This document shows, piece after piece, positions 26,873 to 36,444 of a stretch of DNA of 64,000 nucleotides. The position numbers and the translations under genes were made by a program. The stretch is from positions 64,001 through 128,000 of the forward strand of contig JAHQJS010000003.1 of assembly GCA_019057385.1 (NCBI GenBank), given 5' to 3'. The notes under the pieces are model-generated. The model searched no databases. It worked only from the letters and a program-made list of their open reading frames with translations, and was not told the origin of the DNA. The DNA is from Candidatus Borrarchaeum weybense. Lineage in GTDB: Archaea > Asgardarchaeota > Sifarchaeia > Borrarchaeales > Borrarchaeaceae. Every line of letters starts with the position of its first letter. Positions within the stretch are counted from its first letter, which is position 1.

Positions 26873-26997
26873 TATGAATTAAATCTTATCGTTAGTTCTT
26901 TCATCAATATAAGATAACTTAGTTTGATTCTTACCGTTCCTTTCATAATAGACATCTATTACAGCGAATAGTGTCTATCCACCCACGATAAGAACAT

Positions 26998-27268
26998 GAG
27001 TGGAGGGCCCGCTAGGACGGTTAAGCGGGATACCTACCGCCATATAGGGTGCAGGCCTTGCGTGAACGAAACGATGATTTATTATCAGCGTTCCCGCAGA
27101 ATCGACGGCGTACGGGAGTGCTGGGCTGAAGTCCGTGAAGTGGTCCCGGGGCGAATGCTTAAACCTCCGGGTGCCTCATCTTACCATCAATTCTCACTTA
27201 TATACTGGAGGACCTGCTTTATAAACACCACGCCTCACGCGTTCACTGTGGAACCCCTTGCCCGCGAA
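26998..27268. ncRNA. Unidentified GC-rich structured RNA candidate
   Basis: GC-rich island between convergent genes with stems CCCGCT/AGCGGG, CAGCGTTCCCG/CGGGAGTGCTG, CCCGGGG/CTCCGGG and long-range GTGAACG/CGTTCAC. Confidence 0.5.
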
Positions 27269-27304
27269 AGAATCGTCTATATTTGTCTATAAAATAAATA
27301 ACTG

Positions 27305-27595
27305 TTAATCACCCTCTTGTAACTTTTGTTTGATCACAAAAACTCGTATTTTTTCCTCTGCAATTATAAGTGTATCATTGATGGATTTAATTACAGAATG
27401 AGGAATTAAAATTGTTCCTTTCTCATCGCGCGGAAATTTTTCAATATCTGGATGTTTAGTAGGCTTCACACACACCGCTAATAGGTGGCCATCTCGCGAA
27501 TTAATTATGAAATCAACTACCTTTCCCATAGCAGAACCTTTTTCATCAGTTACAGAAATACCAACTAAGTCCCGGATATCGATGATTTCCGACAT
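27305..27595 (-). CDS. PRC-barrel domain protein
   Basis: DLVGISVTDEKGSAMGKVVDFII...ILIPHSVIKSINDTLII. Confidence 0.85.
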   Translation of the reverse strand: MSEIIDIRDLVGISVTDEKGSAMGKVVDFIINSRDGHLLAVCVKPTKHPDIEKFPRDEKGTILIPHSVIKSINDTLIIAEEKIRVFVIKQKLQEGD

Positions 27596-27912
27596 TTTTC
27601 ATCCCATCAGACCTTGCATGAGTCGGTCTATGTTAAATCAATATTTTTTGCTATTAATATCATCTGCTTCGAGTTATAAATTAGTCAAGTCATATTGACA
27701 GAACCTTTTCAAAAAGCAAAAATGAGAGTAGAATTGGAAAATTCAAAATTCGATTCAATAAATCTCGAATGAAAAGTGAAAACTAAAGAACGCTGTGCAA
27801 TTATCTTCGTTTAAATCATACAAAAGTCTATCATAATGCAGGAAATAGGAGGGAATAATCCCTCCTTATCTAATATTTACAGGAATGCCGATTAAGTCGC
27901 GGATATTTTTTT

Positions 27913-28000
27913 GACATTTTTCGTCCCCTGCGAGTCATTCATTCCCAACAAGTGAGGCGTCGGACCTCTAATTTGGTTCAGTCTCATGCACAAGAACGTG
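27913..28000 (-). ncRNA. Conserved structured RNA scaffold, copy 2 (full unit ~27847-28023)
   Basis: Reverse complement CACGTTCTTGTGCATGAGACTGAACCAAATTAGAGGTCCGACGCCTCACTTGTTGGGAATGAATGACTCGCAGGGGACGAAAAATGTC. Confidence 0.75.
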
Positions 28001-28091
28001 TCCCCCGTGATATACGAAGAACATTCCGCCTTGTAACTCATTAAACCTCTTGAAAAGAGTCTATATAAACACCGCGATTCAAAACAAAGAT

Positions 28092-28919
28092 TCATTCTTG
28101 CCATGTATACAAACCACTCTTCAAGTCATCAAGATAGAGATTTACCATAAGGAGTAGGTGATTTTTTAAAGATGAAAAGCCAAATTTTAGCGCTTCGCTG
28201 ATCTTATCAAACGCTTGACATTTTCGAATATAAGTATAAAGAGCATAAGGGGAATATTGACGCCTTTCTATCTCTATTTTTAATACATCGAAATCAATTT
28301 TTTCTAATTCTGTCACACGATAACGAGAGGACGCTGACCATCTAAATTTTCGAGAAATCATTGCAGATAGTCGGTCATAATGTTGTAATAAATAAAGCCA
28401 AAGAAAATCTTTTTCATCTATATCATAATTGTGATGATTCTTTGCAAGTTTGAAGACATCTTCGTCAGCTATATCAACATCAGTATAAATTTTACTTGGA
28501 TGTCGATCAGTGCCTACAAAATCATGCAGGAGCATTGCTATAATTAACTTTTCCTGCATATCTGAGAGTTTAGGAAGTTTCTTACGAATCTTAATTCTTC
28601 TTGTAGTATAGAGAGGCTTTTTCTTGAGTTTTTTGAGAGAAGTCCAAAAGATTCGTCCCATCCCCTCACATGTATAACTTCCAACACTATCAATAGCAAG
28701 TGCTTCTTCAAGTTTATGTTCTGAAACGATAAACTCAATATTACCAAACCACGCCCTAAAGGTCATTGGCGCACGTCTTTGTCCTACCGTTAATTTTCCG
28801 AATACCCTGGGACGACCTTTTATGGTCATCGCTCCAACGTCGGTAACTCCAAAATGTCTACGCTTTGAAACAATAGGAGTTTTTGTATAACCAATTAATT
28901 TAAAGTATTTCTGTGGCAT
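28092..28919 (-). CDS. Cas5-like RAMP fused to HD nuclease domain
   Basis: N-terminal FKLIGYTKTPI strand and G-loop VGSYTCEGMGRI; C-terminal LLHDF...NHH...YDRLSA HD motifs as in Cas10/Cas3 HD domains. Confidence 0.68.
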   Translation of the reverse strand: MPQKYFKLIGYTKTPIVSKRRHFGVTDVGAMTIKGRPRVFGKLTVGQRRAPMTFRAWFGNIEFIVSEHKLEEALAIDSVGSYTCEGMGRIFWTSLKKLKKKPLYTTRRIKIRKKLPKLSDMQEKLIIAMLLHDFVGTDRHPSKIYTDVDIADEDVFKLAKNHHNYDIDEKDFLWLYLLQHYDRLSAMISRKFRWSASSRYRVTELEKIDFDVLKIEIERRQYSPYALYTYIRKCQAFDKISEALKFGFSSLKNHLLLMVNLYLDDLKSGLYTWQE

Positions 28920-29024
28920 TTTATTCCCTCTTATAAGATTTTACCTCCTCTTTGAACAAAAGAGAGGAGATATAAACCTTGCCAAAGTAAACACGTTTGC
29001 AACTGTTGTTTGTAAAGTGGGTAT

Positions 29025-29111
29025 GACATTTTTCGTTCCTTGCGAGTCATCCGTCCCCAACAATTGAGGCGTCGGACCTCTAAGCTGGTTCAGTCTCATG
29101 CACAAGAACGT
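29025..29111 (-). ncRNA. Conserved structured RNA scaffold, copy 3 (full unit ~28945-29134)
   Basis: Reverse complement ACGTTCTTGTGCATGAGACTGAACCAGCTTAGAGGTCCGACGCCTCAATTGTTGGGGACGGATGACTCGCAAGGAACGAAAAATGTC. Confidence 0.75.
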
Positions 29112-29173
29112 ATCACTCACATCAGTAAGTGATAAACCGTAATGAGATGAGAAAAAAAGTTGAAATAAATGTG

Positions 29174-29983
29174 TCACACAGCCACCTTCTCATCCTGTTT
29201 ACTCATAGTATTCAAAGAAGTTCTCCAATCCTCGATTTTACTTAGAGAAAGCGGAATTTCAGTGGTTTCTTCTATAATTTTATAGTTTCCTTCGCTATCC
29301 TCTTCGACTCTTCGAAAAGTCTCAACCTTCTGAAGAGCAATATTAAGGATTTTGACGCAACCATATCCACTTGACCGTCCTGCCCCAAGAATTTCTACGT
29401 AGAGCATTGCTTCTATAAGAAACTTGATTTCAACATCAGTTAGATTAGTGACATCAATTTGAAAGGAAAAAAATCCACTGAAATAACTCTCACGAAAGTC
29501 TTGGATGGGAGTACCATCATAGGCAAGCGCTATTCTGTTTTCACTAGAGATGTGGACATTTTGAACTGGCACTATTGTTATAAAATCTTTGTGTTTAATC
29601 GAGGCAATAGGGTCTGCTGCGACAACAATAGAGGACTTTTCACGGAAGGTGCCAAAGATTGTTCTGAGAATACAGGGAGGATCGCATGTACCAAGCGCAT
29701 GAAATCCTTGCGGAAGAACACTTTTACCATCTTTAAGTTCAGTTTTTTCAGAACTATGACATACTTCGATGTTGCAGTCTTGAGCAAGTTCCATACAGGC
29801 ATGTCTTAACATCCCTCGGATACCTTTAATGTAATAAAATTTAGTATTGAACGTTTTTTCTCCATTCACATAAGGAAATTTCCCTAACAAGAGCATGCTA
29901 GAATTTTTCTGAATCGAGGCATTGATAGGCTTTGCTATGGGTGTAAAGGCGTGAACAACTATCTGGTTTTTGATTTTTCTCAT
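29174..29983 (-). CDS. Cas7-like RAMP protein (copy 2)
   Basis: IKGIRGMLRH, CDPPCILRTIFG, G-loop LGAGRSSGYGCV. Confidence 0.8.
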   Translation of the reverse strand: MRKIKNQIVVHAFTPIAKPINASIQKNSSMLLLGKFPYVNGEKTFNTKFYYIKGIRGMLRHACMELAQDCNIEVCHSSEKTELKDGKSVLPQGFHALGTCDPPCILRTIFGTFREKSSIVVAADPIASIKHKDFITIVPVQNVHISSENRIALAYDGTPIQDFRESYFSGFFSFQIDVTNLTDVEIKFLIEAMLYVEILGAGRSSGYGCVKILNIALQKVETFRRVEEDSEGNYKIIEETTEIPLSLSKIEDWRTSLNTMSKQDEKVAV

Positions 29984-30326
29984 GTTTCCAACCTCAAATA
30001 TATTTAGTACAAGTACCTATATAAACCTTGCTCAAAATAAACACTTTTTCTACTCTTGTTAGTAAAATGGGGTTTAAAATGACTTCCTTTTTAGAAATAA
30101 AGTATTTTAAACAGGTTTTATGTGAAAAACCATTGTATGTTTAGAACCTGATTTATAAATCACAATGTAACATTCAATTTACATCATCATTTTTTTAAAA
30201 GAATAGTTGTTTGATTTAACAAAATTAAGTTTCTTCGGGAATTCAAAAAGAGTACATTGATGGTATCAACTAAACTAAAAATCGTTCGAAAAAAATAATT
30301 GTTCCATTGATGGTTGCTAATAAAAA

Positions 30327-33300
30327 TTAGGGCAATAGATCTTTTACTGTAACTGGAGGACCCTTTTTCTGTGGTTTATAGATGCCTTCTAAATGTTGGA
30401 ATCTTTCAAACATTAAGTGGAGAGTTTCCTTATCTGGAGCGTAAATAAAGGGGATGAATCGCTTATTTTCTAGCAAAAAATCCTTGAGTTGTACTGCACA
30501 CTGCCTTAAAGCCTCCATTACTGTCATCTTCTGTTCAAGATAGTATATTTCTTGATTGAGTATATCATCAACTAGTCTCTCAACTTTGTAGTGTCCATTC
30601 CATGTTAGGTGATAGAATTGTTCGTGTTCAAGCGTTTTACGCTTCTTGAAATCAGCTTTTGTAAATTCACCATACAAACATGCTAAAATTAGGGTGAGCC
30701 TGAACAAGGGAATAAACATTTCTCGAAAATCAAAGATAGTGCCTAGAAAGGAGCGTTGGGTTTTTTTAAAGTGCAGTATCAGTTCATCCGGTACCCAAGA
30801 AAATCCTACTTCAGCGAGTGCTTTTCGACAGTAAAGGTTAAGATGACGATAAACAGCATTGAGTGCAGCACTAAAGGGTGTACGTGCTTTTACTTCTCCT
30901 AAAAGGACAACGGTGGAAATATAGCGTTCTAGGGTACGACTAATGATCTCAAAGTAGGTTCCTCTTAGCAAACGTTTAGGGATTTCCCAGGCAACTCCTT
31001 CAACTAAGCCTTCAAACCCACGGAGGTTGTCAATATTACCCCTCCAATAGAGAAAAGTATATGCTACTCGATCCAGCAATTTAGATAAGAGCTCTTGAGC
31101 ATTTTCAGCAGATAACAACCCCTCTTTTTCAACTTGGAGTACTGAATTGGCTAGACCTATATCTTTACTTATTGTCAGAAGCCATGCTAGCAATTTGCCT
31201 CGTTCTGTTCCTCTGATTCGCTGAGCGGCATATTTCAGTTCGTCGGCTACCTGTTGTTTCTTTGGAGTTAGTTTATTTTGTGCAAAGAAACTACCTTTTG
31301 GTGTATTTGCATCAATGAGTTTCTTGCTATATTTCTTACGAATGTATTGCGATATATCGCCACCTTCAATGATGATATTACGGATAGCACCGACTAAATA
31401 CCGTTTTGTTTCTCTTCCGTCTTTTAGTGTATGAACAAATCGTTTTTTTCTAATATCGAGCCTTTCATTACACTTGACACGGATATTTCGTTTTGGTCTT
31501 CTGATATAGACCTTTGTCTTTTTAACTCTCTGAACATAATTCCCGGGCTTACCTATAAGCAGTTCTAAATTTGTTTGCAATACATCACGATAACCCGGTT
31601 TTATTACAAGTTCACCATTAACGGTCAAATGATAACTGGAATTGCATTCAGGACAGACTGTATATTCCATATATGAGGACGGTAATTCCACAATGCCACG
31701 AGGTTTACAGTTTAAACATGTAATGCTGCCATTTGTTTCTTGCAATATTCTTATTTTACGTTTTTTTAACCTTTGAACATTTTCGTGATGTTCGCATGCA
31801 CTCTTCCTTGGTGTGGCGTAAGGATTTCTTGCTCGTTTTCCTACTTGTTTGTTTAATTTGCAGTTTAACACACAAACATGTGCATGTTTCGATCTTCGAC
31901 GGTCCTTTATAGGGTTTATCTGAATGAACTTACAAGATCCACAGGTGAGCCGAAGATGTTCAGGAATACTTGCGTTCACATCAGCTACATAGATTTTGGG
32001 GCGCCCTCGAAGCTGACCTTGAGAGATAACCTGTATTTGCTCTTGTATTTTTAACTGCTTGATGTGCTTAACTATCGTAGTATAGTGAACATTTTGATTG
32101 TATTGCTTGCGAACCTCTGACAAAATAAAATCGTAAGAAATGATTCCATGTTTTTTAATAATGTTATAAATTGCTTTATGAAGTCCGGGATATGGTTTCG
32201 GTCTTTGCTTTGGATACCAACGTCTCTTTTTAACTTTTTTCGCTTCATTAGCTTTAAGCTCATTATATTTAGCATTTAGTTTAGTTGAGAGTTCTTTAGC
32301 GACTCGTGCTTCTCTCAGGTCTCTTTGTCCCAAAAAGCTATAACTTGCTTCTGCGATCCATGAGGCTGTTTTCTTATGAGATTCAGCATCACCCAGTCGT
32401 ATTTTTGCCTGAATTGCAGCTTCTGTTACTGTAGATCCTTGACTTAGTAACTTAATGAAGGCTGTATACTGTTGGGCGTTATACCGTTTGGTGTTACTTA
32501 GTTCACGCATACATTGCCCAACAAGTTTGACTAATTGTTGGGAAAACTCCTGTTCTGAAGAGGAATGATTTGTGACAAAAAACTTCTTGATCCTTATTGC
32601 AATTTTGATCGGCAGTAAATATTTACTTGCCCAACGACCCTTGTCTGTTGCACAGAACCTTCCTCCATTTTTTCTAACAAAACCTTCCGTGATCAGCGTT
32701 TGAAGGATACCCTGTTTCTTATTTCTTTCATCAGACTCAGGTTTAGCCAATAGATCTCCTTTTAATTGCTGTTTGAAGTCTTTCAATTTGTCATAGGTGA
32801 ATGGTGTGAGAAATAAGCGAAGTTCGCCGTATTTAACCTTGTTTGCAGTGGTTCTTTTCCTGATCCAAATGAAAAATGTTCGAGTTAATCGTTTCAAGTC
32901 GTTCGGCAGGGAACCTTTGTGTGCGTCGAATAGTATTAACAGTAAATGATTTTCATTATTAAGTTGGCATAGTTCCTCTTCTTTGGTCATAAGTGCACTA
33001 TTCATTAGTTCGAACCAGTTCCGTAGCATTGTTTTGTATTGATGAAAGAAATAGTGCCTTTCAAGTTTGCTCAGTAATTGATTCGAGGATACAGAACCCT
33101 TAGCTATTAATGTAAGTACAATATCTGCCATTGAAGAACGTGCTTGGCTTTTAATGCTATGTTCTTTCACTATCAGTTGTCCTTCAACGATTTGTATCTC
33201 CTTTTGTTTCAGAAGTTCTTGGTCGTTTCCAACAAAGATCAAGTCAGCATACCCAATCCTATGATGTCGCGGTCGTGCCGCCCTGCCACTCAGTTGTATA

Positions 33301-34310
33301 AGCAGTTGGGGGCTGAACATTTCAGCATCGTTGATTATCACTCGTTTAATCGGAAAGTTAACCCCCTCTCCGTATTGGATTGTTGAAACAAAGACCTGAA
33401 ATTCGCCATTGTTAAGTCGCCTCATAGCTTCTCGTTGTTCTTTCTTACTGAGTCCTGCGTGACTGTAGCCAACTTTGAGATCGAAACCAGAATTCTTGAG
33501 AAAGATCTGCAATATTTCAGCATATTTCTCAACCTGTTTTCGTGTGTAACAGAAGAGTTGCACGATTTTGATCTGATGTTCATCATTCGAAGGTTGCTCA
33601 AAGGTCTTTTTTATCAATCTAGCGAAAAGAAAAATCTTTTTTCGTTCAATTTGTTCTAATTTATTGCCTGAAATTCCAAAAGTCGACACAATAAGTGTCG
33701 ATCGCCGCTCTTTTGTGTGTATAAGATGAGCATCGAGCCAACTTGCCAGATCTTCAGTATTACCTAATGTAGCCGAGAGATAGATAATTTGCGGACGAGG
33801 ACGCAACCACGCTTTAGCATTAACAATTGCGGTTTCTAGGTGCACGCCCCGCCCTTTTTTGCCTAAATTGTGCAGTTCGTCAACTACCAGCAATCCCACT
33901 TGGTCTAAGAATGGATATTCAAAATGTTTGGCTAGTAGTCCATTAAAGGATTCGTAGGTGATGACGAGAATATCCGCACTTTGAATCTCTTCAGGAGCTG
34001 GTCGATCATCTCCGCTGACCCTGAGGATGGTACATGTGTCTTGATACCACTCTTTGAATCTATCGTACATTTGATCGATTAGACGCTTGGTCGGCTCAAG
34101 GATCACACAGCGCAAACCTTTTCCTAGTATTTTTGTAGACATTATTTGAGCGATCAAGGTTTTTCCCGAAGCTGTGGGAGAGTACAATATCTTATCCTGT
34201 CTTTGCTTCCCAGAAAAACATGCTTCCCATTGAAAATCGTAGAGAGCTTTGATGTCAGCCTGTTCTAATCGTTGACGAATGAATTCGTAGTTAAACCCTC
34301 TTTTTGTCAT
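30327..34310 (-). CDS. SF2 (Ski2/Hel308-like) helicase - wHTH/Zn-finger - Cas1-like integrase fusion
   Basis: SPTASGKT, VVDELH, LSAT, QLSGRAAR; CxxC pairs; C-terminal IDNLRGFEG...PFSAALNAVY...GFSW...LILH...IFDFREMF...FIPF follows the Cas1 catalytic-domain pattern. Confidence 0.8.
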   Translation of the reverse strand: MTKRGFNYEFIRQRLEQADIKALYDFQWEACFSGKQRQDKILYSPTASGKTLIAQIMSTKILGKGLRCVILEPTKRLIDQMYDRFKEWYQDTCTILRVSGDDRPAPEEIQSADILVITYESFNGLLAKHFEYPFLDQVGLLVVDELHNLGKKGRGVHLETAIVNAKAWLRPRPQIIYLSATLGNTEDLASWLDAHLIHTKERRSTLIVSTFGISGNKLEQIERKKIFLFARLIKKTFEQPSNDEHQIKIVQLFCYTRKQVEKYAEILQIFLKNSGFDLKVGYSHAGLSKKEQREAMRRLNNGEFQVFVSTIQYGEGVNFPIKRVIINDAEMFSPQLLIQLSGRAARPRHHRIGYADLIFVGNDQELLKQKEIQIVEGQLIVKEHSIKSQARSSMADIVLTLIAKGSVSSNQLLSKLERHYFFHQYKTMLRNWFELMNSALMTKEEELCQLNNENHLLLILFDAHKGSLPNDLKRLTRTFFIWIRKRTTANKVKYGELRLFLTPFTYDKLKDFKQQLKGDLLAKPESDERNKKQGILQTLITEGFVRKNGGRFCATDKGRWASKYLLPIKIAIRIKKFFVTNHSSSEQEFSQQLVKLVGQCMRELSNTKRYNAQQYTAFIKLLSQGSTVTEAAIQAKIRLGDAESHKKTASWIAEASYSFLGQRDLREARVAKELSTKLNAKYNELKANEAKKVKKRRWYPKQRPKPYPGLHKAIYNIIKKHGIISYDFILSEVRKQYNQNVHYTTIVKHIKQLKIQEQIQVISQGQLRGRPKIYVADVNASIPEHLRLTCGSCKFIQINPIKDRRRSKHAHVCVLNCKLNKQVGKRARNPYATPRKSACEHHENVQRLKKRKIRILQETNGSITCLNCKPRGIVELPSSYMEYTVCPECNSSYHLTVNGELVIKPGYRDVLQTNLELLIGKPGNYVQRVKKTKVYIRRPKRNIRVKCNERLDIRKKRFVHTLKDGRETKRYLVGAIRNIIIEGGDISQYIRKKYSKKLIDANTPKGSFFAQNKLTPKKQQVADELKYAAQRIRGTERGKLLAWLLTISKDIGLANSVLQVEKEGLLSAENAQELLSKLLDRVAYTFLYWRGNIDNLRGFEGLVEGVAWEIPKRLLRGTYFEIISRTLERYISTVVLLGEVKARTPFSAALNAVYRHLNLYCRKALAEVGFSWVPDELILHFKKTQRSFLGTIFDFREMFIPLFRLTLILACLYGEFTKADFKKRKTLEHEQFYHLTWNGHYKVERLVDDILNQEIYYLEQKMTVMEALRQCAVQLKDFLLENKRFIPFIYAPDKETLHLMFERFQHLEGIYKPQKKGPPVTVKDLLP

Positions 34311-34851
34311 AATAATGATCTGCCCCCTCAGCTTCGTCTAATTAGATATTAGCTAAAATTCATTTATAAAGCGGGTAAACTTTCAAATCGATTGCTAGAA
34401 TGTTCTATTCGATAAAAAACAAGTTTGCCTTCGGCATAGTTACCTTCGCTATGTCGCTTCTCAAAAAAAAACCACCGTTGAAGAAGGTAATTAATCCTTC
34501 TCTTCAATGATAGAGGAGGGTTCGATTTTAATCACCTATAGAACATAATGAAATACAGAGGACAAAAAACTACAATAAGACTTATTGCTTCCAAAGTATT
34601 TAAACTCGACAACTCGTGATTTAAGTAGTTAATCAAGAAGGCTAAACTTCTTAGAAAATATGGTAGAAGAATCTTCATCGAAAAAGGTTTTTGAGGGAAA
34701 AGAAAAACATCTGTGACATTGTTCCTACTATAAGTTTGCCGATAAAGTTAAAAAAAAGACTTCGTATAGATATTGTCCAATACTTTGGCACAATAATGTA
34801 ACTCGTGGACTATTTTAATAATATAAGTTCCCTTGTAATCAAACAATTGAA

Positions 34852-35028
34852 GCGGGGGTGTCCGAGATCTCCTCTCAATGGAGAGTAACGGGAACTTGGC
34901 CAAAGGAGCAGGACTGAGGCTCCTGTGGCGTAGAGAAGCATTAGATGCCTTAGGTTTCGCGATCGCCTGCGTGGGTTCGAAGGAATAAAGCAAAATGGCT
35001 TATTCCGAAAATCCCATCCCCCGCACCA
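34852..35028 (+). tRNA. tRNA-Leu(GAG) with three non-canonical introns
   Basis: GCGGGGG...CAGGA-CTGAGGC-TCCTG...CCCCCGCACCA; same layout as tRNA-Leu(CAG). Confidence 0.88.
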
Positions 35029-35117
35029 CTCTTCACTCACGGAACAAATTACTGGTTTTTAATGGGTTAAATATGCGCCTTAATGTTGCAACATAATGTA
35101 TTGTCAATTTTCTCTTA

Positions 35118-35432
35118 GTGAGCTACCTCGTGCTAAAGCTTTGAGGCTTCCTGCTTCTACGACAGACTCGATCCCCTGGCGGGTTACGGAGGTCTTATCT
35201 CCACAGGCTTAACATCCCTACGCCCCGTAGGTACGGTTAACCATCGTGATGCAATCGAAGTATGCATCTTGACTACAAGTGTGCGTGTGATCCCTCCAAT
35301 TGCAGTTGATATCTCGTCATACCAGCTATATAACTCTTAGGGAGACCCCTCGATGCAAGTGATAAAAGTGAACACATATTATTGCAATTCATCACCACGC
35401 TGAAGCTTTGGTGCTTTCTTGCTCAGCTACTC
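35118..35432 (-). mobile_element. Non-autonomous IS200/IS605-family element (no ORF)
   Basis: Both ends and an internal block (CTCCACAGGCTTAACATCCCTACG.CCCGTAGGTAC) near-identical to the tnpB remnant at 62211-62799; subterminal hairpins. Confidence 0.8.
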
Positions 35433-35454
35433 GTAATTTTTCATTAGATTTCTT

Positions 35455-36444
35455 TCAGATTTTGACGGAATAATAGAGCGAGGAAGGAGCACCTGACAGA
35501 AGAAGCCAAATAAAACAAACAAACCAATCCAATATAGCAATTACAGAACATATAACGAGCGCACTAGGGAACAAAAAAGCAAATAAGCCGATCATGAATA
35601 ACATTTGGGATAGACCTGCAGGGTTAACGATACTCGCACCTAATAAGTATGAAGTTGCACCGATGAACAATGCTACACCAAAGGAGAGAGGATAGCCCAC
35701 AGCAATTGAGAGGATGTAGACTTTACTTGCTTCGAGAATCCAAATTGGAAAGGCAATAAGGAGTGCAAGAGGTGTATTTCGCTTATCAGTAATAAGATCT
35801 TCAATATCTTTCGTTAGTTCTGACATTCCTTCAACTGCTTTCTTCTGAATTTGCTTAGCAGGCTTAAAGATCGTTTGTAGAATTTTAATGCAGAAATTGA
35901 CGAACCAAGGCTTTCTAATTAAAACGAAAAAAGCGATAAACAAAGCAATAATACCAACAGAGAACAACCACGACTGAATAACACTTTGTAAGTCACTAAA
36001 AATGAATATGATAGAAAACGAGGTAATTATAACGAGTGCAACACTATCAACAAAGCGTTCAACGATTACTGAGGTCAAAGATTTAGAGAATGTGGTTTTT
36101 CTGTCTTTCGATAACCAATAACTTCTAACAAACTCTCCGACTCGAAGTGGGATGATTGTGTTGATAAAGATACCAGAGCACAAAATCGGAAATAGTCTTA
36201 TACTTGGGGGCAGTTTATAAGAAGAAAGAAGAAGATTCCAGCGACCAGTTCGAAGAGAAAAGGATACAATTATTAATAAGAACGTGGGGAACAACAAAAG
36301 AGTATTTGCTTGCTTTATGGCATCAAGAATAGCATTAAAACCAAGCTGGCTAAAAATATAGATGATGATGGCACTAGTTACCATGAAGATAAGAATGACA
36401 AACAATGTTTTGCGTAGAGTAAAATTAACGGAAATTACTCTCAC
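35455..36444 (-). CDS. Lysylphosphatidylglycerol synthase TM / UPF0104 flippase-like membrane protein
   Basis: Multi-TM; LRTGRWNLLL, NTIIPLRVGEFVRSY, SVIVERFVD. Confidence 0.85.
   Translation of the reverse strand: MRVISVNFTLRKTLFVILIFMVTSAIIIYIFSQLGFNAILDAIKQANTLLLFPTFLLIIVSFSLRTGRWNLLLSSYKLPPSIRLFPILCSGIFINTIIPLRVGEFVRSYWLSKDRKTTFSKSLTSVIVERFVDSVALVIITSFSIIFIFSDLQSVIQSWLFSVGIIALFIAFFVLIRKPWFVNFCIKILQTIFKPAKQIQKKAVEGMSELTKDIEDLITDKRNTPLALLIAFPIWILEASKVYILSIAVGYPLSFGVALFIGATSYLLGASIVNPAGLSQMLFMIGLFAFLFPSALVICSVIAILDWFVCFIWLLLSGAPSSLYYSVKI

Follow-up and report, generated by a model that had tools for sequence, protein, structure and literature searches.

An ARAMP cassette of an Asgard archaeon as a probable RNA-guided, site-specific mobile element with a helicase-Cas1 fusion

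A block of 6,925 nt in the genome of the Asgard archaeon Candidatus Borrarchaeum weybense is an insertion with filled and empty forms of its site, and is read here as a probable RNA-guided mobile element. The block lies in a window of 64,000 nt (positions 64001-128000 of contig C3) taken from a metagenome assembly of 4.18 Mb in 8 contigs, with an estimated contamination of 7% (GCA_019057385.1). It carries a helicase-Cas1 fusion, a Cas7, a protein with RAMP and HD domains (RAMP-HD) and two copies of a structured RNA (RNA-A and RNA-B), and its gene set is a member of ARAMP, an already catalogued cassette. The reading proposed is that of a site-specific, multi-copy element built on this cassette, with an autoregulatory guide and with the helicase-Cas1 as the likely integrase, and its probability is put at roughly 0.6. 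All results rest on sequence comparison with relatives that are few and related to one another, the congeneric genomes G001, G002, G003 and G004. Coordinates are those of the window, and the element and its genes are on the minus strand (Table 1).

The element interrupts the start of a PRC-barrel gene. At the same site it is absent from G004 (contig C28) and G002 (C29), with flanks 85-94% identical, and from G001 (C123, 81%). In contigs of X2 and X3, two further runs of the sediment study, 27578 is followed directly by 34504, with exactly 6,925 nt skipped, while the run holding the filled form has even coverage across the element. In the empty alleles the PRC-barrel gene adjoins the sequence that starts at 34504. 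The native gene of G004 and G002 reads GTGATTAAAATCGAA..ATTGA|TATCCG..., where the part before the bar is window 34535-34504, followed in the window by the element. The remnant of the gene upstream of the element ends ...ATCATTGA, precisely where the empty alleles go on TATCCG..., and from 27586 on the gene is again 94% identical to G004. The comparison of filled and empty sites, which the preliminary description of this DNA had recommended, fixes the element ends at 27579 and 34503. A deletion in the relatives was set aside: three relatives and the environmental contigs have the intact gene, and this genome has a split remnant.

The genome holds several such modules, with 11 cas7, 11 RAMP-HD and 6 helicase-Cas1 genes. 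The order in the family is helicase-Cas1, cas7, RNA-A, RAMP-HD and RNA-B, sometimes with extra RNA copies, and the stretch from the left end to the core genes carries different cargo in different elements (TPR/LRR proteins, unknown proteins). The co-oriented cluster beside the PRC-barrel gene had been described before, and all its parts were found again as open reading frames (ORFs) or as the repeat. A near-identical locus is present in a contig of GCA_019058535.1, where the RAMP-HD protein is labelled Candidatus Borrarchaeum sp. by NCBI.

The two RNA genes were recognised as a direct repeat of 91 nt (27912-28002 and 29024-29114, 90% identical) placed after the second and the third genes. The conservation reaches about 45 nt further 5' than this core, and the extension includes a hairpin of varying sequence with compensatory changes. 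Upstream of the RNA-B scaffold, GTTTATATAG is conserved in five copies, and a TATA-like box precedes several copies. A search with nhmmer retrieves 29 RNA copies in the genome, 25 of them strong, and a covariance model (CM) built from 24 copies finds 21, 8, 4 and 3 in the four congeneric genomes (36 in total). In a pairing test on 57 sequences, 93.2% of the cells pair, compared with 41-58% when the partners are slid, and both sides are changed in 112 cells versus 36 +/- 5 in shuffles, a value reached by 0 of 500 shuffles. Because G-U pairs are frequent, the RNA strand is the gene-sense strand. The repeat is a structured RNA family supported by covariation, as expected from the scaffold RNAs noticed earlier.

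Some copies of the scaffold have other neighbours. A gene for a GIY-YIG nuclease (C4:903548-904047, and also on L047 and L059 in congeners) has a scaffold RNA immediately ahead of its start and a second scaffold behind it. Genes can therefore occupy the slot between repeats that is elsewhere taken by an RNA tail, given that this gene is repeatedly flanked by scaffold copies.

The strongest pointer to a guide function comes from the segment downstream of the RNA-A scaffold. This tail matches, on the same strand, the promoter of the cas7 gene of its own module, with 45 of 53 positions identical in the module of the window. The match is present in eight modules (seven in this genome and one in G004) of three subfamilies. 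In all eight, no base separates it from the scaffold; it spans about 48 nt and amounts to 85-97% within each module. The subfamilies differ mutually in the tail/promoter pair, yet the pair agrees inside each module. The mismatches are located at positions 5, 11, 17, 23, 29, 35, 41 and 47, i.e. at every sixth position. When the union of the varying positions is taken, register positions vary in 6/6 and the others in 2/33 cases in subfamily 1 (Fisher 8.6e-6), in 7/8 and 5/43 in subfamily 2 (4.9e-5), and in 2/7 and 1/39 in subfamily 3 (0.056). Codon periodicity is no explanation of this register because the matched promoter DNA is non-coding.

In Cas7-backbone complexes of type I and type III, every sixth base of the guide-target duplex is free. 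The 6-nt register would hence be the signature of a Cas7-bound guide, and it is the best evidence in this analysis for the tails being guides. RNA-A most likely represses its own cas7 promoter. The RNAs had been proposed as integration guides, a role that does not suit RNA-A, which aims at the promoter of its own module and looks regulatory.

The spacer between the helicase-Cas1 and cas7 genes (30072-30326) contains a block kept across module subfamilies, AAAAC.T.TTTAAAA..CTTTATTT..AAAAAGGAAG..., whose closing motif is similar to the scaffold 3' end and lies directly ahead of the promoter segment that RNA-A matches. This block could be a regulatory site or what is left of a third RNA unit after decay.

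The tail of RNA-B (S1) points to the insertion site. It is identical to the PRC-barrel gene of the empty alleles in 31/32 positions in G004 and 30/32 in G002, and it starts where the upstream remnant stops. Against the copy next to the element (27906-27877 versus 27579-27550) the identity is 25/30, and its ungapped score of 17.5 compares with a null maximum of 13.5 in 40 random regions of 1.5 kb. Scores above those of 40 random regions are obtained for four terminal RNAs. The claim that the RNA 3' segment matches the flanking host gene is in this way upheld, and it recurs at three other insertions. The first of them is a 10.3-kb insert at ftsY, a site empty in G004, G002 and G001. In the stretch compared there, the remnant of ftsY (94% to G004) reaches position 332, and the match of the tail sets in at 333 (29/35). 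The second is a 10.6-kb insert at a small ORF on contig C5, empty in G004, where the target is 5 nt from the junction. The third is a 5.25-kb insert at pyrD (C3:60790 to window 2040), empty in G004, G003 and G001. There, identity to the host sets in again with the first base of the target. The tail matches the native allele in 36/38 positions and the occupied copy in 24/25, over 25 nt only and with the 5' part missing. A further guide/target pair in G004 agrees in 22/23 positions. The upstream flank of the module at C4:420 kb has no counterpart in the relatives, and no clean empty site is available for C4:750 kb and C4:905 kb, which in G004 too are occupied in part.

The target of the guide starts at the insertion junction, or at most 5 nt from it, at the four sites (PRC, ftsY, pyrD and C5), and in 5/5 cases the RNA-B target lies no more than ~150 nt into the neighbouring gene, which is co-oriented. 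At these four insertions the location of the module agrees with its variable segment, the tail matching the junction-side host sequence. Integration upstream of conserved genes had been envisaged. The matched sequence does abut the insertion point, and the insertion is inside the 5' end of the gene, at the 5' edge of the target, instead of upstream at a distance.

This geometry bears on a reading in which nothing is guided to an insertion site. ARAMP would then be a domesticated RNA-guided regulator or a defence module, with RNA-A acting on its own promoter and RNA-B on the neighbour gene, and the block would have arrived otherwise. The pairing of RNA-A with the promoter, which is the strongest guide signal, fits such a role, as does the position of the RNA-B targets near the start of co-oriented genes in all five cases; comparable guide RNAs that regulate cas genes are known in CRISPR systems (PMC8730458, exapted CRISPR RNAs). 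This reading is nevertheless improbable: regulation alone would not call for targets that start at most 5 nt from the junction, as they do at four independent sites; the element is present in many copies and its insertion is polymorphic; and its three genes include no other recombinase.

The pyrD element reaches into the window, where it ends at 2040, at the start of pyrD (2038-2982). Its part at 937-2040 includes cas7 (937-1746), one scaffold RNA (1711-1848) and a tail at about 1854-1891 that matches the native pyrD start, and its cargo comprises three unknown proteins (451, 353 and 376 aa) in place of the helicase-Cas1. At the same pyrD site, locus L084 of the near-identical GCA_019058535.1 contig has cas7, RNA-A, RAMP-HD and RNA-B. 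Given this full set, the RAMP-HD gene seems to have been lost from the pyrD element of the window via recombination between the RNA repeats.

The tails of the terminal RNAs occupy a fixed slot. They begin directly after the scaffold, extend for about 32-38 nt and are then closed by a hairpin that is not of host origin. Strong perfect hairpins with U-rich tails are found at +42 to +58 after the scaffold in 8/17 terminal or orphan copies. This arrangement concerns another explanation, according to which the RNA-B tail is a recombination leftover, either a copy of an att site or a target duplication, and the RNAs are merely structural or involved in processing. The upstream remnant and S1 together rebuild the uninterrupted host sequence, which is also what would result if an element simply inserted into a gene start that had been duplicated. 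From tRNA-gene integrases it is textbook knowledge that an integrative element aimed at the end of a gene often brings a copy of this end along. A leftover is very improbable, however, in view of the fixed slot with its strong non-host hairpin, of the Cas7-type 6-nt register in the sister RNA-A and of the lack of a tyrosine, serine or DDE recombinase gene in the element (Pfam). Junction geometry, fixed tail slot and 6-nt register disfavour both this explanation and the purely regulatory one. The classical Campbell model with the matched sequence as the att core was also considered and rejected, as the order of the parts does not fit.

The insertion appears to leave the host gene with a new beginning. 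The present PRC-barrel gene starts with an element-borne ATG (27595-27593) followed by MSEIID, and the native start GTGATTAAAATC... is replaced. The ftsY gene is likewise complete downstream of its element: nt 1-115 are 56-73% identical to G004 and the remainder 80-100%, with the breakpoint between foreign and native sequence at the 5' edge of the target. Because the identity switches at the target edge, the ftsY promoter and the first 38 codons are foreign and travel with the element. The comparison suggests that the element repairs the gene that it splits by bringing a promoter and a substitute 5' end.

The targets beside the elements are diverged. In the PRC-barrel gene, 8 mismatches to G004 occur in the first 43 aligned nt and 9 in the next 230, and the element-side targets at PRC and ftsY are about 80% identical to the relatives versus about 95% beyond. 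The divergence could represent an escape from the guide of the element itself, with two cases only at hand.

The protein most likely to act as integrase is the 1327-aa fusion. Its N-terminus is a Hel308-like superfamily 2 (SF2) helicase (Pfam DEAD and Helicase_C; Hel308-type models of NCBIfam). The C-terminal 450 residues of the protein itself have no direct Cas1 match in Pfam, NCBIfam or PADLOC. Paralogs and homologs that are 74-80% identical over the C-terminal part match Pfam Cas_Cas1 with 39 bits, over profile positions 7-264 of 283. An exhaustive search of 1.84 billion proteins gives just 29 representatives, many of them helicase fusions that also match Cas_Cas1. A profile of 22 C-terminal domains matches Cas1 4n06 (E 1.3e-20) and casposase 6opm (2.3e-17) in the PDB. 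With an AlphaFold2 (AF2) model (predicted local distance difference test, pLDDT, 82.6), the top 50 Foldseek matches are all Cas1 or casposase chains, the best being casposase 6opm_B (5.6e-11) and Cas1 4n06_B (7.9e-11). The E, R, R, N and H columns are invariant and D is conserved in at least 90% of the 22 sequences; the Cas1 metal triad corresponds to E1100 and H1180, both invariant, and D1194. From these comparisons and the predicted fold, the C-terminal domain is judged to be a true Cas1 with an intact E-H-D triad, in agreement with the Cas1 fold assigned to it from the letters alone.

The other two proteins resemble effector subunits. The 269-aa protein matches RAMP PF03787 (2.9e-6) and PADLOC Csm3 (2.3e-8), by which it is classed as a Csm3-like Cas7. 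The 275-aa protein has zero matches in Pfam, NCBIfam and PADLOC. Invariant motifs (HD, H and HH) and a G-rich loop are common to its 84 homologs, of which the named ones are all from Asgard archaea (Ca. Borrarchaeum, Promethearchaeota, Heimdall- and Thorarchaeota). Foldseek on the two-domain AF2 model (pLDDT 88.8) is weak, with a best E of 7e-3, and the domains were resolved by VIA-align. Residues 1-108 are predicted to adopt a RAMP fold that Cas6, Cas5, Csm4 and Csf chains resemble alike (Z 6-7.5), and for residues 119-275 the match is the HD domain at the N-terminus of Cas10/Csm1 (6ifk_A, Z 8.5). Of the earlier name Cas5-HD, the model bears out the RAMP and HD domains and does not single out Cas5 from Cas6, Csm4 or Csf.

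A distant pair of cas7 and RAMP-HD genes is found inside the genome of a head-tailed virus or provirus (L082:7253-8768, GCA_027051165.1), flanked by the portal/capsid genes on one side and the terminase on the other; Cas4 and PCNA are close by. The covariance model R1 detects no scaffold RNA beside the distant pairs of this viral contig and of one Heimdall contig, and the RNA may be too diverged there or absent.

An HD nuclease and an SF2 helicase form a Cas3-like pair, which leads to the third alternative, homing by cleavage. The guide-loaded Cas7/RAMP-HD complex and the helicase would act in the manner of a split Cas3 and cut the unoccupied allele, on another chromosome copy or on incoming DNA, and recombination would copy the element in. 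The diverged neighbouring target would be immune to the guide, and the Cas1 could serve, for example, to acquire tails. In line with this scheme, the guides fit the empty alleles better than their own neighbour (31/32 versus 25/30 at PRC; 36/38 versus 24/25, without the 5' part, at pyrD), the lower identity of the element-side target (about 80% versus about 95%) is expected of a resistant target that travels with the element, and elements devoid of Cas1 are still insertions. Homing by cleavage is all the same considered unlikely. The ftsY breakpoint is exactly at the 5' edge of the target and the remnant is native up to the junction, which indicates a precise joint and not a variable conversion tract, and the Cas1 domain is kept with an intact active site in six paralogs.

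In the preferred reading, guided insertion, the scaffold RNA of ~140 nt would be bound by the RAMP-HD protein and by the Cas7-like RAMP, the latter probably in the form of a filament, and the 3' tail of the RNA would be the guide. RNA-A would steer the complex to the promoter and TATA box of cas7 in its own module, resulting in autoregulation. RNA-B, with its scaffold, ~32-nt guide and terminator hairpin, would recognise in an unoccupied allele the host sequence immediately 3' of the insertion point. This recognition would direct the element into the 5' end of the host gene, at the 5' edge of the matched sequence, and the promoter and substitute 5' gene end brought by the element would keep the interrupted gene functional. 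The fused helicase-Cas1 would most likely be the integrase. We infer from the comparisons that the RAMPs would bind RNA, that DNA and not RNA would be the target, and that Cas1 would catalyse the insertion.

Several observations weigh against guided insertion. The helicase-Cas1 is missing from 5/11 modules, and among these is the pyrD element, which is an insertion all the same; the Cas1 would therefore be supplied in trans or would not be the integrase. Nearby targets are not detectable for about half of the terminal and orphan RNAs. The mismatches of S1 to the target in the window are at 10, 17, 19, 22, 26 and 33 and follow no 6-nt register. Since the guides share the sense of the target genes, mRNA cannot be the target. 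No RNA run containing the locus was found among the public sequencing runs. A framework common to the subfamilies is present in the promoter segments that RNA-A matches, and part of the similarity between RNA-A and promoter could therefore be that of an ordinary shared promoter. Finally, no inverted repeat is shared by the ends that the empty sites delimit, and the left ends of four elements have no evident common terminal motif. An 8-nt ATCATYGA is the only sequence that recurs at both junctions of the PRC element, and the DNA upstream and downstream of each module shows no similarity beyond chance.

ARAMP (Asgard RAMP) was reportedly catalogued by Makarova and colleagues in the CRISPR Journal in 2020. 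Reviews describe it as a cassette of Asgard archaea that derives from type III and has no array, with 'a distinct form of Cas1' and an enigmatic mechanism (PMC8730458, PMC12669027). The same reviews expect HRAMP, a CRISPR-like relative, to act by mechanisms that differ from CRISPR's, and name no ARAMP RNA. Whether the present protein set belonged to the described array-less Asgard modules had been left undecided by the preliminary description; it is ARAMP. The locus fits in its Asgard host, diverged type III-like Cas7, distinct Cas1, nuclease domain and lack of a CRISPR array. In place of the Cas5-like partner of ARAMP, it has a RAMP fold equally close to Cas6, Cas5, Csm4 and Csf joined to an HD domain of the Cas10/Csm1 kind. 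In contrast to the reviews, where no RNA, guide or insertion-site logic is given, the locus offers a conserved scaffold RNA whose tails are guide-like, a match that is autoregulatory, and sites in both filled and empty form. The literature searched, outside of which stands the original ARAMP description of 2020, contains no description of an ARAMP RNA, guide or homing. The RNA family, the 6-nt register, the filled and empty sites, the correspondence of the RNA-B tail to the insertion site and the replacement gene start are new.

The element shares features with several mobile systems. Like the CRISPR-associated transposons (CASTs; I-F3, I-B and V-K), it has a putative nuclease-poor complex of Cas7/Cas5 type and a guide, tolerant of mismatches, for a conserved gene beside its end. 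Unlike them, it is devoid of Tn7 genes (TnsA/B/C, TniQ; Pfam on the three genes) and of a CRISPR array or CRISPR repeats. CASTs insert about 50-80 bp away, whereas the element sits at the edge of the match, inside the 5' end of the gene and with a replacement start, and the Cas1 fusion stands where CASTs have a DDE transposase. The label of a casposase analogue of CASTs is in this sense apt for the element-borne homing-type guide and the casposase-like Cas1, and falls short in the Tn7 genes and the array, both missing from the element.

With casposons the element has in common a Cas1-family protein in a mobile element, casposase 6opm being the top structural match. On the other hand, it has no PolB-type ORF in 27579-34503 (no family search for PolB was made elsewhere in the window). 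Casposons have terminal inverted repeats and a target duplication of 14-15 bp, of which the element shows neither, only the 8-nt ATCATYGA, and they lack the RAMP proteins and guide RNA that it has. It differs from type III CRISPR-Cas in having no Cas10 Palm/cyclase, only the HD domain fused to a RAMP, and no array at the locus. The omega-RNA of IS200/IS605 elements (TnpB/IscB) is also a scaffold RNA at the element end, with a 3' tail equal to the sequence beside the insertion, and serves retention or homing. Those elements depend on a single RuvC nuclease, in contrast to the class 1-like Cas7/RAMP-HD, the delimited tail with terminator and the rescue gene end found here.

Guides that regulate cas genes are represented by tracr-L of type II-A and by cr-like regulatory RNAs (bioRxiv 10.1101/2023.03.03.530964). 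In these systems too, the locus encodes a guide that pairs with its own cas promoter. The guide of the element differs in its non-CRISPR scaffold of 140 nt, the lack of an array and a match of ~48 nt in which only the flipped positions are free.

A wider proposal is put forward tentatively, as it is judged somewhat less likely than its opposite: ARAMP may be a new class of RNA-guided mobile elements, in which an array-less Cas7/RAMP-HD complex with a scaffold-guide RNA directs the helicase-Cas1, as integrase, to the edge of a ~32-nt target in the 5' end of conserved host genes, the element supplies a promoter and a guide-resistant gene start ('home-and-rescue'), and a second guide throttles the promoter of the element. 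ARAMP gains here an RNA partner and a guide signature, and with its own promoter and the insertion site it gains two concrete targets as well; testable predictions follow. If the homing reading is true, the element would represent an independent origin of RNA-guided DNA insertion via Cas1 and not via a Tn7 or IS110/IS605 enzyme. Its compact layout of three proteins and a single RNA would then be of possible interest for programmable insertion, and it would illustrate how the host can survive a mobile element lodged in an essential gene such as ftsY. The findings bear on the kinship of Cas1 integrases, casposons and CRISPR adaptation, and Cas1 would here join casposon-type integration to RNA guidance. 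To our knowledge, this combination is not known from described systems.

Table 1. Features of the inserted element and of its junctions (window coordinates)
Feature	Position	Strand	Remarks
Whole inserted element, 6,925 nt	27579..34503	-	Absent at the same site in relatives and environmental contigs
Helicase-Cas1 fusion, 1327 aa	30327..34310	-	Helicase 1-450; weak winged helix-turn-helix (wHTH)/Zn-ribbon middle; Cas1 about 960-1290
cas7, Csm3-like RAMP, 269 aa	29174..29983	-	PF03787, PADLOC Csm3
RAMP-HD protein, 275 aa ('Cas5-HD' of the preliminary description)	28092..28919	-	Predicted fold
RNA-A scaffold, ~140 nt	29020..29160	-	CM R1 137 bits and covariation
S_A, guide-like RNA-A tail, about 48-52 nt	28970..29021	-	Overlaps promoter and TATA box of the 275-aa gene
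T_A, cas7 promoter segment, -88..-35 from the cas7 ATG, TATA box included	30019..30071	-	Matched by S_A
RNA-B scaffold	27908..28048	-	CM R1 148 bits; TATA-like box upstream at ~28059-28066
S1, guide-like RNA-B tail, 32 nt	27875..27906	-	Equals host sequence after the insertion point
Perfect 8-bp hairpin with U-rich tail, terminator-like	27847..27866	-	dG -14.0 kcal/mol; +44 after scaffold
Element right end, degenerate copy of the scaffold 3' end	27579..27628	-	Supplies new ATG and codons MSEIID
T, host target, PRC codons about 6-16	27547..27578	-	Matched by S1; junction at its 5' edge
PRC-barrel gene as now expressed, element-borne start and native body	27305..27595	-	PF05239
Native PRC start remnant (GTG and codons 1-11)	34504..34535	-	Collinear with the G004 and G002 gene start

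The element holds three genes only, and its only repeats are the two 140-nt RNA genes. The absence of an array and of cas2 from the window, already noticed, agrees with a crude array scan and with whole-genome Pfam searches for Cas1 and Cas2, which place both elsewhere. Arrays are found only at C4:149-152 kb, together with a repeat at C3:30850, outside the window, and the only canonical Cas1/Cas2 pair is at C4:153.6-154.8 kb. This canonical CRISPR-Cas locus (C4:149000-155000) comprises arrays at ~149.3 and 151.6 kb, cas1 (153602-154474) and cas2 (154630-154842). Given its presence in the genome, Cas2 or Cas6 could come in trans.

The tRNA-Leu(GAG) previously placed at the other flank is plausible once three putative introns are removed, with the qualification that it is intron-rich and on the opposite strand. 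As the sequence stands, ARAGORN and Rfam give no tRNA in the window, and no known RNA family either, at the gathering threshold or at E<=1 (34300-35500). When the three introns are cut from 34852-35028 (+), ARAGORN calls tRNA-Leu(GAG) in every accepted splice variant. The apparent introns are located in the D-loop, the variable arm and the T-loop, and the gene is conserved in G004.

Two further short repeats are present in the window. The first, of ~320 nt (35118-35436), is GC-richer, has dozens of copies per genome in all congeners and no Rfam match, and is absent at this place in G004; many contigs break at 35115-35118. The second, of ~377 nt (26934-27310), has a 98-aa ORF (26996-27292) and many copies in all four congeners. 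It is absent here in G004 and G002, and one environmental contig skips 378 nt (26932/27311), so that it looks like a small active mobile element.

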